DNA from: a virus
DNA length: 64,000 nt
IMG/VR virus record: IMGVR_UViG_3300042518_001688
Location: 19,409-83,408 of that record
Direction: 5' to 3' (one strand)
Under the pieces are notes generated by a model. That model saw nothing but the letters and a program-made list of their open reading frames with translations. It ran no database searches and was not told the DNA's origin. The translations under genes were made by a program, and so were the position numbers. This document shows, one piece after another, positions 591 to 34,850 of the stretch; the stretch's first letter is position 1, and each line of letters opens with the position of its first letter.

Positions 591-995
591 TTATTTTTTC
601 TTCTGATAAGCTTGTCTCTCTGGCGCGTGATTTTTGTGGACTTCGCAATATGGATAAATTGCGTCGCTTCTTAAATTAGAATTGCACACAAGGCAGTTCA
701 TACTAGCTGCTATTTCACTAGCTATGGGCGTATCCGGATCAAATGATGTTGTGACAATAGCTATAGGTTTACCCGCTTCTTTAATGGCTTGCCATTTACA
801 TCTATTCCTGTAGTGGCTAACTATGGGTGCTGCTAACCAGTAGGGTATTCTCCCACAGGATATAATTAGTCCCTTTGTTCCATTAATTTCCGGGAATGTC
901 ATCTGTAGTAAGTCTAGTCTATCTGCTTTTCCCCTGACTTGAATAAATATCCAAGTCTCCAAGTCTTTTTCTACGGTGGTAATTTTTGTAGTCAT
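591..995 (-). CDS. Divergent Csx3/Crn3-like protein with C-terminal Cys/His (Zn-finger-like) tail
   Basis: KGLIISCGRIPYWLAAPIVSHY resembles the Csx3 GVVLSGRxPxWL motif; CLVC...C..H tail. Confidence 0.55.
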   Translation of the reverse strand: MTTKITTVEKDLETWIFIQVRGKADRLDLLQMTFPEINGTKGLIISCGRIPYWLAAPIVSHYRNRCKWQAIKEAGKPIAIVTTSFDPDTPIASEIAASMNCLVCNSNLRSDAIYPYCEVHKNHAPERQAYQKKK

Positions 996-1107
996 AATCA
1001 ACATTTTAGCTAATTTTAAAGTAATTATAGTAGGATGCTTGACAACTTACTATAATCTTTGCTATTGTAGTTTACATAAGAAAAAGCCAGCCAAGGAGCT
1101 ACTACGT

Positions 1108-1410
1108 ATGTCCACTTACAATATTGACTTAGTTGATGGCATTGTAAAAGTTGGCTTTGGTGAGCCAGCGCAAAATGACCAAATCGTTAAAGATGCAAAA
1201 GCCCTAGCTGATGCCTTAGTATCTTCCGGCGAATTAAATGGTCAATTGGTTAAGATTAGCGGACCCGCTTCTCTTCCTGTTGCTTTTGTTTTAGCTAAAT
1301 CTTTTTCTGCGGTTGCTGCGGCGATCGCTTGCTATGATCCCAAATTGCAAAAATATGTGGTTGCTATCAGCCACAATCCTAAATATCAAATTGGTGATTT
1401 AGTTGATTAA
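1108..1410 (+). CDS. csx3: CRISPR-associated ring nuclease Csx3/Crn3 family protein
   Basis: VGFGEPAQNDQIV...KISGPASLPVAFVLA...YDPKLQKYVVAISHNP typical of cyanobacterial Csx3; AAGGAG RBS before ATG 1108. Confidence 0.8.
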   Translation: MSTYNIDLVDGIVKVGFGEPAQNDQIVKDAKALADALVSSGELNGQLVKISGPASLPVAFVLAKSFSAVAAAIACYDPKLQKYVVAISHNPKYQIGDLVD

Positions 1411-9320: not shown

Positions 9321-9515
9321 TTAGGATACAGTATTGGATTGCCTATTTAAAATGAAAATAGCAGAAGGGCATTCATTACCATTTATATCTTTACTGTCTG
9401 TGCGACACGCATATCCATCAGACATCCCATAGACTTTTCTCTCGATAGTCCATGCAATGCCATACGAATCAACAAACTTCATCCCTGGTTTAATTTCTGT
9501 ATTCGAGTCGAACAT
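9321..9515 (-). CDS. Hypothetical phage protein
   Basis: Small ORF in tightly packed operon. Confidence 0.5.
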   Translation of the reverse strand: MFDSNTEIKPGMKFVDSYGIAWTIERKVYGMSDGYACRTDSKDINGNECPSAIFILNRQSNTVS

Positions 9516-10008: not shown

Positions 10009-10455
10009 TCACTCAACGTATTTTAGTTGTTTAATAGTGAAATCTTGTTCAGTCCCCCCGTGATGGTAAATTATGGAATTTATGGCTTGAGTAGCCCAAA
10101 ATTCAGAGGCATAGGTTTGCGCCTCACACGCGCCACTCCAGTTATCATTCTCTGACCAAAAATGTCCATTCTTGGCTAAGACATACAAAGTCTGCCTAGC
10201 TTGTTCTTGCATTTCATGGAAGACATCTAGTAACGCTGGATTGTGCATTATCCTAGAGGATTCAGGTTCGTCCCCGTATTCATGCCATGTTTGCACAAGA
10301 ATTGAATTATCAACAGGGTAAACAATTAAGTAATGATACATACCCTCCTGTGAATCCCATCTAGCATCCTCAATAGAATAACCAAATCCTCCGTTTTCGT
10401 GTAATCCCGATGGTTTACAGTATTCCAATAACATTCTTAATTCATTTTCAGTCAC
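10009..10455 (-). CDS. Hypothetical protein flanked by direct repeats
   Basis: GTG start after AAGGAG RBS. Confidence 0.55.
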   Translation of the reverse strand: MTENELRMLLEYCKPSGLHENGGFGYSIEDARWDSQEGMYHYLIVYPVDNSILVQTWHEYGDEPESSRIMHNPALLDVFHEMQEQARQTLYVLAKNGHFWSENDNWSGACEAQTYASEFWATQAINSIIYHHGGTEQDFTIKQLKYVE

Positions 10456-10456
10456 C

Positions 10457-10519
10457 TTACTCTCCTTGTTTCCTTGGTTTTTTCGAGGCTCTCTGTTCCC
10501 ATACCAACCCTTTGCGATC
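10457..10519. repeat. 63-bp direct repeat copy 2 (3' end of XRE gene)
   Basis: Matches 9946-10008. Confidence 0.9.
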
Positions 10520-10729
10520 GCCTTTCCCACTTTCTCTAATAGCCAAAGCTAAATCATCGAGAGAGCATTTGTAGAGGTTCGCTAACTGAATGAACTTGTC
10601 GAGGGACATTGTTGGAGTAGAACTACCTTTTTCCCAGTTAATAAGGGTTCGTTCTGTTACCCCAATCACCTCCTTTGCATCACTCAGTCTTATGTCGTGA
10701 GCTAACCTTAACGACCTTAAATCAATCAT
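10457..10729 (-). CDS. XRE/Cro-type HTH transcriptional regulator
   Basis: LRSLR...AKEVIGVTERTLINWEKGSSTP HTH. Confidence 0.85.
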   Translation of the reverse strand: MIDLRSLRLAHDIRLSDAKEVIGVTERTLINWEKGSSTPTMSLDKFIQLANLYKCSLDDLALAIRESGKGDRKGLVWEQRASKKPRKQGE

Positions 10730-15021: not shown

Positions 15022-15436
15022 TTATTTATTTCCTCTCCAAATCATATCACTGAAAAATCCCCAACCGTCAATTCTAGAATCAACATTGCTGTAGGTAGAT
15101 AAACCATCTTTAGTCAATTCAAGAAAGCATTTACCATGCTTTTCTTCTGTGTAGTTTTCAATGAAAACACCATCCAATCCATCGGATGAAGGACAAAACC
15201 GAACATGAGGAGGAGATATGATGATTGCCAATTTAGTATTTTTTGGAGGATAAATACACTTGTAGGCGATCGCACCATACTCAGCTAATATAGCGATCGC
15301 TGCTTTTCCTTTGATTGGATTTCTGCTCTCGTCGCTGGCATACTTATCAAGATTTTCTACTGCTTTTAAAGCGTATTCCCAATCAATTATGACTGGTTTG
15401 TTGATTTCTTTGAATGGTTCTAATTGAATTTCCATG
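15022..15436 (-). CDS. Hypothetical protein (start approximate, MEIQLEPF)
   Basis: ORF track 15022-15537; internal Met with GGGG RBS more plausible. Confidence 0.45.
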
Positions 15437-18389: not shown

Positions 18390-18994
18390 TATTAAACGAT
18401 AAGCAGATAACAGAATTAGCTCAAAAAGGGATGATTCAACCATTTGAATCTTCACTGGTTCGGGAAGTTGAGATATCTGGATATCCTGGTATGACCCAAC
18501 GGATTCCGGTTGTTAGTTATGGTTTAGGCTCTTTTGGTTATGATATTCGTCTTAGTTCCAAGGAATTTAGGATTTTTAAGCATATTCCAGGCACGGTTAT
18601 AGATCCTAAAAACTTTAATCCCGACAACCTTGAATCTGTCCAACTGCATCACGATCCTAATGGTAGTTTCTTTATTCTTCCAGGTCATTCCTATGGACTT
18701 GGTGTAGCGGTTGAAAAGATAGAAATGCCAGCAGACTTAACCGCAATCTGTTTAACCAAGAGTACGTATGCTAGGGTTGCGATCATTGCAAACCTTACGC
18801 CAATAGAAAGTCAGTGGCGAGGACATTTAACTATCGAGATATCTAATAATTGTAGTGCTGATTGCAGAGTTTATGCCAACGAAGGAATAGCGCAATTGTT
18901 GTTTTTAAAAGGTGAACCTTGCTCTGTTTCCTACCAAGACAGAAAAGGTAAATACCAAGACCAGCCAGAACAGATTGTATTCGCAAAGGTTTAA
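18386..18994 (+). CDS. dcd: dCTP deaminase
   Basis: SYGLGSFGYDIRL, KSTYAR, YANEGIAQLLF, YQDRKGKYQDQ. Confidence 0.93.
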   Translation: MILNDKQITELAQKGMIQPFESSLVREVEISGYPGMTQRIPVVSYGLGSFGYDIRLSSKEFRIFKHIPGTVIDPKNFNPDNLESVQLHHDPNGSFFILPGHSYGLGVAVEKIEMPADLTAICLTKSTYARVAIIANLTPIESQWRGHLTIEISNNCSADCRVYANEGIAQLLFLKGEPCSVSYQDRKGKYQDQPEQIVFAKV

Positions 18995-34004: not shown

Positions 34005-34850
34005 CTAAATTGCTTCAATTACAGATGGATACCACTTTAACGATGTCACAGATTTATTGTGTCCTTTGGCTGTATCCATGACAGTTTGAGAATATCCTTT
34101 ACCTTCCTCTGTTGGCTTCCAAGCGGGTTCACTTCCATTCGGGTTTTTAAATTGTAAACCTTTATCTACTAGGAGTTTGTTCATCTTTTGCGCTGACAAT
34201 TTAATGCCAGTTTTAGCTTCGTATAGTTCTGCTAGTTTTCCATGTCTAACTAACTCGTCTTCGATGGGGATACTTAACAACTTCTTGGCTTCTTCCATTG
34301 CAGGTGCAAGCTCCGGGTAAATCTTGGAGAAATAATTAGCCTTAACACCAGCAATTAATCTGGAGTCTGTTCCTGTAGGTATCAAAACCAAGTCAATAGC
34401 AGTAGCACTTGCTTGTAAGTAAAGAGGGTTGCTTAGTTCTTGGTTTATTTGCTCCACTTGCTTGGGTTCTTGTCTTTTCCATCCTGTCTGTTGTTGTATC
34501 CAAGACCGGACACCAATACCAGTAAAAGCAGTGTCAACCATTTCCGCTTGTTTCTTGCATCTTTGTCCAGCTTTATAAGCGTAGTATTTGGCTATGATCG
34601 CGATCGCTAAATCAGGAATACCATTTTCAGTCCAAAACAAAATCCCACCAGCATCAAAGCCTTGCTCTGTAAGCAGTGCAACCAATTTACTAGGAGAAAT
34701 CCCACCAGCAGTTTTAAGCGATTCCAGTAAACTTGTATGATCAACATCCATCAACCTAGCAACTGCACGAATTGACGCTTTACCTTTTCCGGTTGCATCA
34801 ACAGAGATTTCATTTTTGATCTGATCAACGATTAATGCTAAATTAGTCAT
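34005..34850 (-). CDS. Phage antirepressor-like protein, paralogue A
   Basis: N-terminal ASIRAVARL helix; C-terminal LSAQKMNKLLVDKGLQ...WKPTEEGK KilA-C/ANT-like domain. Confidence 0.7.
   Translation of the reverse strand: MTNLALIVDQIKNEISVDATGKGKASIRAVARLMDVDHTSLLESLKTAGGISPSKLVALLTEQGFDAGGILFWTENGIPDLAIAIIAKYYAYKAGQRCKKQAEMVDTAFTGIGVRSWIQQQTGWKRQEPKQVEQINQELSNPLYLQASATAIDLVLIPTGTDSRLIAGVKANYFSKIYPELAPAMEEAKKLLSIPIEDELVRHGKLAELYEAKTGIKLSAQKMNKLLVDKGLQFKNPNGSEPAWKPTEEGKGYSQTVMDTAKGHNKSVTSLKWYPSVIEAI

Follow-up and report, generated by a model that had tools for sequence, protein, structure and literature searches.

The window analyzed here, that is, the whole stretch of 64,000 nucleotides spanning bases 19,409–83,408 of the viral IMG/VR record IMGVR_UViG_3300042518_001688 (83,408 bases), carries near its left end two small genes related to Csx3 (Crn3), a manganese-dependent ring nuclease of type III CRISPR systems that degrades the messenger cyclic tetra-adenylate (cA4). 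P0001 (1108–1410 on the plus strand, with 1108–1407 coding) is a stand-alone Csx3-family gene of 100 codons plus a stop, recognized by Pfam, PADLOC and sequence identity. P0002 (594–995 on the minus strand, stop codon at 591–593) encodes a divergent Csx3-fold protein of 134 amino acids, recognized by Pfam and HHalign. An initial annotation, made from the sequence alone, had described 1108–1410 and 591–995 as two divergent Csx3-family genes, and both indeed pass the Pfam gathering score of Cas_csx3 (PF09620; 21 bits), P0001 with 29.1 bits (E 8.9e-7) and P0002 with 24.1 bits (E 3.2e-5). In a Pfam scan at E values up to 1, Cas_csx3 was the sole family for either protein, and DUF1874 did not appear. 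Our central finding is that P0001, whose closest homologs are accessory proteins of type III loci in cyanobacteria, has had both metal-binding histidines replaced in a single phage clade and retains key residues of the ligand-binding face.

The assignment of P0001 to the Csx3 family is supported by several comparisons. With PADLOC, it matches the N-domain of Csx3-AAA (6.7e-24) and Csx3 itself (9.4e-15) over its full length. Both proteins lie well below the equivalog cut-off of the NCBIfam Crn3 family TIGR02579 (55.4 bits), scoring 21.6 (P0001) and 18.1 bits (P0002). A set of 5.8 billion proteins contains 190 relatives of P0001 at E ≤ 0.001, most of them about 101 residues long, 55–62% identical, named Csx3 and derived from Nostocales. 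Among the best 80 of 180 matches in 185,579 species genomes, none is more than 62% identical. P0001 is closer to stand-alone host Csx3 (about 60% identity) than to the Csx3-AAA domain (about 44%). When the P0001 family was compared with 17 canonical Csx3 sequences using HHalign, the probability was 97.6% over 54 columns. A single-sequence search of PDB chains returned only chance matches (E ≥ 0.49); mixed alignments gave strong PDB matches, but these arise partly by construction, since canonical Csx3 sequences were included, and were used for residue mapping only. In the ESM Atlas, P0001 matches Csx3 clusters only; in two of them, the few recorded members are largely Uroviricota, a lead rather than evidence. 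Neither P0001 nor P0002 has a family in PHROGs, and tblastn at E 1 found no match to either in 50,697 GenBank phage records.

In Csx3 of Archaeoglobus fulgidus, the active site is common to two dimers that sandwich cA4, and the dimers stack head to tail around it (PMC7371418). According to the same source, the D69 face (S44, G45, R46, I49, R71 and D69) makes most of the cA4 contacts, and the H60 face bears the absolutely conserved H57, H60 and H80. The H60A and D69A variants are each inactive, their mixture is active again, and H60A has been crystallized with cA4 sandwiched between dimers (PMC7371418). These roles of H60 and D69 agree with those that the initial annotation had assigned to them. 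By HMMER alignment, H57, H60, D69, R71 and H80 of the A. fulgidus protein correspond to K64, A68, D77, K79 and H89 in P0001 and to S60, N64, E73, G75 and F85 in P0002. In P0001, both histidines of the manganese site are therefore replaced (K64/A68), the D69/R71 pair is present as D77/K79, with lysine being the rule throughout the subfamily, and H80, by which the H60 face is anchored to cA4, is present as H89, a histidine kept in six of the seven members of the clade. The SG loop is also kept. The initial annotation had noticed that the usual LAHxxAH reads LAKSFSA here, with YDPK and ISH retained; the alignments, in which relatives read LAHKxAH, bear this out and further confine the loss of the histidines to a phage clade.

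The replacement of the two histidines is part of a larger change. Codons 64–71 (1297–1320, plus strand), which cover the H57 and H60 equivalents, encode a remodeled helix, KSFSAVAA instead of HKxAHxYG. With eight residues in a row altered, it goes beyond a point mutation. Of these positions, six, K64 and A68 included, are invariant in all seven clade members, S65 and S67 being variable or deleted; taken together, K64, F66 and A68–A72 are invariant in all seven. A compensated frameshift was considered as the origin of the rewritten helix and rejected, as the other two frames of 1297–1320 contain, judged by eye, a stop or no histidine. An alignment of 136 proteins shows both histidines in 129, and the seven without both are P0001 and P0003–P0008, exactly the clade with at least 82% identity (82–98%). 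Host stand-alone copies show the pattern H, H, D, K, H in 80 of 80 cases and metagenome loci in 79 of 80, the exception being L094, a phage contig whose copy is 96% identical. In a maximum-likelihood tree rooted on canonical Csx3, the rows lacking the histidines form one group, with one change, nested among histidine-bearing proteins (Shimodaira–Hasegawa-like approximate likelihood-ratio support of 93). The loss of the histidines thus has a single origin on this tree and is confined to the phage clade of P0001. The protein itself evolves under purifying selection: the window and L094 differ at 12 synonymous and 5 non-synonymous sites, giving a ratio of non-synonymous to synonymous substitution rates (dN/dS) of 0.11, and 68 of the 100 positions are invariant across seven representatives of clade clusters (down to 82% identity).

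P0002 is a protein of another kind. Its close family matches the 17 canonical Csx3 sequences with a HHalign probability of 99.3% over 91 columns, and the family profile finds the A. fulgidus Csx3 chains in the PDB at 1.1e-13; the single sequence finds A. fulgidus Csx3 only at E 1.2–1.4, and nothing was found for it in the ESM Atlas. All five catalytic positions are replaced (S60, N64, E73, G75 and F85). The protein retains the S-(C)-G-R loop and the tryptophan and is without most of the residues of the ligand face. The aspartate at the D69 position is kept in 8 of about 19 members of the wider family, whose consensus runs SHYRNR..W.A.YDP..KGAIV..S, then CLxC...PYCxxH, then a basic end; in the subclade of P0002 itself, KEA or KES replaces YDP. 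Relatives are few: 15 at E 0.001 among 1.84 billion representatives, and 31 proteins found by the family profile in the 5.8-billion set, the more distant of which are ordinary Csx3. The dN/dS of P0002 was 0.03–0.08 in three comparisons, with synonymous divergence up to 1.3. From its sequence, P0002 is probably non-catalytic too.

The initial annotation had also pointed out a Cys/His tail on P0002, and C101, C104, C117 and H120 are found there, invariant in six of six close relatives. This tail (residues 94–134; 594–716 on the minus strand) has a zinc-ribbon-like CxxC...CxxH motif followed by a basic end. A second copy lies 1.2 kb upstream, outside the window, at 18470–18620 of the record, with 93% DNA identity that extends through the stop codon and a few bases beyond. 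It ends P0129, an open reading frame (ORF) of 91 codons on the minus strand (record 18482–18754, 654–926 bases before the window start), which shares this Cys/His tail of 41 residues; its N-terminal part (50 residues) matches phrog_23655, a family of unknown function (E 1.5e-17). The tail thus looks like a module common to unrelated small proteins of this phage, and its recurrence on an unrelated protein suggests that the tail of P0002 has a role of its own. A different combination was seen in P0133, a 231-residue metagenome protein that joins a GIY-YIG nuclease domain (PF01541) to a P0002-type Csx3 domain.

The window, the IMG/VR contig L005 (= L090) and the 74-kb metagenome contig L094 all have a P0002-type gene paired head to head with P0001. 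A related arrangement occurs at 9467–12085 of L006, a viral record of 154 kb that is 98% complete: a P0002-like gene (30–38% identity) is head to head with a histidine-bearing Csx3 fusion that has a C-terminal extension of about 130 residues. No P0002-type gene was found in 80 host loci or in the other 79 metagenome loci, and single-query scans with P0130 and P0125 found no further P0002-type loci. In a sample of 401 cyanobacterial genomes, there was one full-length P0002 member with the tail, located beside genes matching PHROG tail families; the other 40 matches were partial Csx3-domain matches or tail-less forms, mostly proteins of about 320 residues. Judging from these sequences, P0002 represents a separate, rare Csx3-fold family, seen here only in phage-like contexts. 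As a separate observation, a protein of the HD_4 family (E 3.1e-21), a family that also adjoins host Csx3 in 30 of 80 loci, is encoded about 700 bases beyond the Csx3 pair of L006.

Between the divergent genes lies a shared intergenic control region (996–1107), delimited from the letters and a promoter scan. The TTGACA around which the initial annotation had placed the head-to-head pair is located at 1039–1044 on the plus strand, followed by TATAAT (1051–1056) and TG-n-TATTGT (1060–1068); the minus strand has TATAAT at 1024–1029. A Shine-Dalgarno sequence, AAGGAG (1093–1098, plus strand), precedes the ATG of P0001 by nine bases. As a bare consensus, the promoter is at chance level (4 found versus 4.6 expected), yet its core is conserved letter for letter in contigs L092 and L094, although their coding DNA has diverged. 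Directly after P0001, RNA folding reveals an intrinsic terminator on the plus strand (hairpin 1417–1460, U-run 1457–1464, U8) with a fold of −20.1 kcal/mol and a z-score of −4.88; none of 200 shuffles was as good, and a simple terminator scan had missed it. Three RNA libraries contain short contigs that cover the two genes in part, at a depth of 3–5, and a DNA run covers all; such contigs may themselves contain DNA and are a weak hint of transcription rather than a demonstration. The lack of RNA-library cover at 400–620, 928–1103 and 1412–1700 is uninformative.

A three-way DNA alignment shows how the gene comes and goes. From L092, the P0001 cassette is missing exactly after TATTGTA, but P0002, the promoter between the genes and the cupin gene downstream are still there; the same precise absence, with the promoter and P0002 remaining, is seen throughout L091–L093. 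In L094, an extra small Cys/Arg-rich ORF lies between P0001 and the cupin gene (10300–10560), followed by a clean hairpin terminator. This ORF is absent from the window and reduced to its last codons in L092, and because these codons survive there, L092 is a deletion derivative. P0001 behaves as a dispensable cassette with its own promoter and terminator.

The surroundings of the two genes are those of a phage. In the window, PHROGs names ribonucleotide reductase, DnaB helicase, head-morphogenesis proteins and virion proteins, and the 19.4 kb to the left of it contain a portal gene and a HU-like gene. A structural protein of 1,152 residues is 42% identical to its counterpart in Aphanizomenon phage vB_AphaS-CL131 and about 35% identical to those of Nodularia siphoviruses, and 125 bases at the window start are 97% identical to CL131 gp009. 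The phage is best explained as a siphovirus that infects heterocyst-forming cyanobacteria and is distantly related to CL131 and the Nodularia phages. Half or nearly half of the sequence words of the stretch are found in each of at least 14 DNA runs from lakes or fresh water (about a dozen studies), and three of these runs may be its source; runs with small word shares are not usable as habitat evidence.

The initial annotation had seen no CRISPR locus in view and proposed an upstream check for cas genes, holding that a type III operon just left of the window would indicate a host locus. No such operon is there: the left flank has the portal and HU-like genes, searches for Cas10 palm2, RAMP and Cas_APE2256 (CARF) gave no match at E 0.1 in the whole 83-kb record, and scans of the window and of the 19.4 kb left of it found no CRISPR or tandem array. 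A host locus or host contamination is ruled out by the phage genes on both sides together with these negative searches. No tRNA, integrase or resolvase gene was found either, in a record whose estimated completeness (71% according to CheckV) does not establish the true absence of these genes or of the arrays.

The closest relatives of P0001 belong to host type III loci. For the best 80 of 180 genome loci, neighboring genes within the fetched flanks were clustered and the cluster representatives named with Pfam and PADLOC. Cas10 is present within 10 kb in 61 of the 80 loci, RAMP/Csm proteins in 62, a WYL regulator in 58, a Cas_APE2256 CARF protein in 32, an HD_4 protein in 30 and Cas6 in 26. 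In 57 of 80 Nostocales loci, the stand-alone Csx3 is followed immediately, within 50–220 bases, by a Csx3-AAA fusion. These neighbors mark the host homolog of P0001 as a genuine type III accessory gene, in agreement with the contexts described by Shah et al. (PMC6546367) and Athukoralage et al. (PMC7371418). In the N-domain of host Csx3-AAA, both histidines are present in only 3 of 49 sequences and the aspartate in 49 of 49. Such a residue pattern fits a sensor rather than an enzyme and would provide a precedent for Csx3 without the histidines as a ligand module. It also suggests that host Csx3 and Csx3-AAA constitute an enzyme-plus-sensor pair, which could share cA4 across stacked dimers; the ATPase of Csx3-AAA has been predicted to be regulated by cyclic oligoadenylate (PMC6546367).

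The 44 repeat arrays in the fetched loci yielded 676 spacers, which we compared with the record of the phage and with its relatives. At record positions 10530–10561, 30 of 32 letters agree with a spacer of Trichormus sp. NMC-1 (L088; E 2e-8); this spacer comes from a 52-repeat array directly upstream of a WYL-Csx3-Csx3-AAA-Cas10/Csm locus. A spacer of Anabaena lutea FACHB-196 (L074), from an equivalent array beside a Csx3-bearing type III locus, matches L094 at 33 of 37 letters and the record at 29 of 33 (34507–34539; window 15099–15131). Five shuffled spacer sets reached E values of 3e-4 to 2e-3 at best; a third match (26 of 29, E 3e-4) is within this range and was not counted. If ...GGAAAC is, as we assume, the 3′ end of the repeat, both CRISPR RNAs are complementary to the mRNA of the target ORF (antisense). 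Five of the six mismatches, counted by hand, fall on third codon positions. The phage lineage is thus targeted by arrays of Csx3-bearing type III loci. If variability as a phage cassette, own expression signals, a homolog in host defense and targeting of the phage are taken as an operational profile of anti-defense genes, P0001 would be classed as a candidate.

Taken at the level of residues and context, these results give about an even chance that P0001 and P0002 are non-cleaving cA4 binders that blunt type III signaling. In this scenario, the phage would have captured a stand-alone Csx3/Crn3 gene from the type III CRISPR loci of its hosts, and the captured gene would then have lost the catalytic H60 face and kept the D69 face. 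P0001 would bind cA4 as the H60A variant does, without cutting it, a prediction derived from residue conservation, and it would withhold cA4 from host CARF effectors and Csx3-type effectors, Csx3-AAA included; it might also cap head-to-tail stacks of Csx3 domains on cA4. P0002, as a second putatively non-catalytic Csx3-fold protein, would serve the same counter-defense, alone or as a partner. The initial annotation had named the two genes a candidate anti-type III cA4 nuclease or sponge and suggested binding without cleavage; the residue pattern of P0001 supports the latter idea, but the two genes are not of one kind, P0002 belonging to its own phage-restricted family.

Several observations weigh against this interpretation. 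The alignment of the P0001 family to canonical Csx3 is confined to the C-terminal half, and a profile built from that family only finds no PDB chain at E 0.01. Two of the ligand-contact positions are changed (R46 to P and R71 to K) throughout the P0001 subfamily, hosts included. P0002-type genes occur without any P0001 on contigs L091–L093, so the two genes need not cooperate. Csx3 with both histidines intact is present on other large viral contigs (L006–L009), which means that a working nuclease is also a viable phage solution. The completeness estimate leaves about 29% of the genome unseen, where cas genes may be located. Finally, PMC13148439 takes the view that the amount of messenger made by type III systems is so large that sponging ‘could be fruitless’, and that viruses turn to nucleases instead. 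Together with the intact Csx3 of L006–L009, this view is the chief objection to pure sequestration.

Alternatively, P0001 could act mainly as a dominant-negative cap that stacks on host Csx3-domain proteins, chiefly Csx3-AAA, and ends cA4-induced head-to-tail assembly, blocking this effector without depleting free cA4. Head-to-tail stacking of dimers with a shared active site (PMC7371418) speaks for such a cap, and its presumed main partner adjoins host Csx3 in 57 of 80 loci, lacks at least one of the histidines in 46 of 49 Csx3 domains and has an ATPase with predicted cyclic oligoadenylate control (PMC6546367). Moreover, the dead face of P0001 has been remodeled over eight residues and then conserved, as expected of a surface still in use. 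P0001 nevertheless has about 60% identity to stand-alone Csx3 as against about 44% to the domain of Csx3-AAA, and we regard capping as somewhat unlikely. P0001 might also remain part of a working ring nuclease, either by pairing its D69 face with the histidine face of host Csx3 in trans or through an altered site formed with P0002. The regained activity of mixed H60A and D69A variants (PMC7371418) and the presence of both histidines in Csx3 of the likely hosts (80 of 80) speak for the former. However, reliance on a host enzyme gains the phage little over an intact captured gene, such as other viral contigs do carry. As for P0002, it has S, N and F at the positions of H57, H60 and H80 and so cannot provide the missing face; a split active site completed by P0002 was rejected on these grounds. 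Overall, continued nuclease activity seems quite unlikely.

The pair's job might be unrelated to CRISPR signaling, involving another nucleotide or short RNA, or the proteins might be nucleic-acid-binding or virion factors that act through the zinc tail. The earliest description of Csx3 was that of a deadenylase that binds RNA (cited in PMC7371418), P0002 is without most ligand-face residues, and the recurrence of its tail on another, unrelated small phage protein suggests a role specific to that tail. On the other hand, the affinity of A. fulgidus Csx3 for cA4 is about 100-fold that for RNA (PMC7371418), the nearest relatives of P0001 are all in type III loci, and gain and loss of the P0001 cassette are typical of counter-defense genes, all of which makes a function outside CRISPR signaling an unlikely one. 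The loss of catalytic residues and the deletion of the gene in some relatives could also be taken as signs that P0001, once captured from a host, has lost its function and survives as a decaying remnant. Yet it has an intact frame with a Shine-Dalgarno sequence, promoter and terminator, and RNA-library contigs cover it, for what this weak hint is worth. Since the dN/dS is 0.11, 68 of 100 positions are invariant across the seven representatives, and both histidine replacements and most of the remodeled helix are invariant in the clade, P0001 is not decaying, and we consider a remnant extremely improbable.

A more specific form of the non-cleaving cA4 binder is conceivable, in which P0001 and P0002 would be complementary halves of a closed, non-hydrolyzing cA4 trap, a defined heterotetramer rather than an open filament. 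A family-conserved His/Arg/Asn patch of P0002 (SHYRNR) sits where the catalytic histidines would be. P0001 dimers would supply the D69 face, the SHYRNR patch of P0002 dimers, whose own D69 face is lost, would act as a lid on cA4 from the other side, and the shared zinc-ribbon tail would tether the assembly to a further partner. We hold this arrangement to be rather improbable; if true, it would be the first anti-CRISPR derived from Csx3 and also the first cA4 sponge dedicated to countering type III CRISPR.

The non-cleaving role considered here for P0001 has both parallels and differences among known systems. Crn3/Csx3 of A. fulgidus (AF1864; PDB 3WZI, 6VJG and 6YUD) belongs to the same sequence family, and P0001 keeps the equivalents of D69, R71 (as K) and H80; in contrast to that enzyme, P0001 carries other residues in place of both manganese-binding histidines, P0002 does so at all five key positions, and the phage has no cas locus in the record. 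P0001 resembles a natural double version of the laboratory H60A variant (H57K and H60A equivalents), but the likeness is one of sequence, and a whole eight-residue helix has been rewritten instead of one side chain. Csx3-AAA (Csx3′, cluster 35 of Shah et al.) is another natural Csx3 without the full histidine set (46 of 49 lack at least one), keeps the Asp face and adjoins the host homolog of P0001. However, it is ATPase-fused and host-encoded, whereas P0001 is stand-alone and nearer to the histidine-bearing stand-alone Csx3. AcrIII-1 (DUF1874) and AcrIII-2 (viral SAVED) follow the same presumed strategy, viral interception of cA4, but have different folds and are both catalytic. Csx15, Tad1, Tad2 and Acb2 sequester a cyclic nucleotide without degrading it, as proposed for P0001. 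Csx15 forms head-to-tail filaments on cA4 (PMC13148439); unlike P0001, it is cellular and has not been seen in phage genomes. The Tad and Acb sponges act on signals of Thoeris and CBASS (cyclic oligonucleotide-based antiphage signaling system) and are unrelated in sequence.

Viral cA4 interception and nucleotide sponges are both already known ideas. AcrIII-1 and AcrIII-2 (viral SAVED), the viral type III counters named in the cited papers, insofar as their text was accessible, are enzymes. Among 28,114 phage genomes surveyed, AcrIII-1 was reported in 36, Csx20 in 4 and Csx16 in 2, and the accessible part of that survey named no Crn3 (PMC12409355). The full-text literature, subscription papers and supplements aside, yielded no description of a viral Csx3, with the proviso that the tables of PMC12409355 could list weak Crn3 matches; the CL131 paper contains no occurrence of Csx3 or anti-CRISPR. 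A host ring nuclease that has been captured, with its metal site abolished, its surface rebuilt and the gene kept under selection, would amount to a natural experiment on the doubt about sponges raised in PMC13148439. If P0001 does work as a cA4 binder, Crn3 would join the families used by viruses. The results also point to the uncharacterized host Csx3/Csx3-AAA pair as a signaling module worth study, and, with bloom-forming Nostocales as the likely hosts, may be relevant to phage control of cyanobacterial blooms.

Two further observations concern the relatives and neighbors of P0001. Six contigs (L013, L017, L053, L057, L083 and L086) labeled as Patescibacteria-type metagenome-assembled genomes, one of them 150 kb long, encode cyanobacterial-type Csx3 about 60% identical to P0001; their neighboring genes are otherwise unique, with no Cas10/RAMP cluster in the flanks, and they may be mis-binned mobile elements or phages. 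Downstream of P0001, the cupin gene is followed in the window by an ORF of 98 codons (1930–2226), the first 47 or so residues of which are shared with a Cys-rich ORF of 402 codons in L092 (8209–9417) before the two diverge, so that the ORF of the window looks like a truncated remnant.

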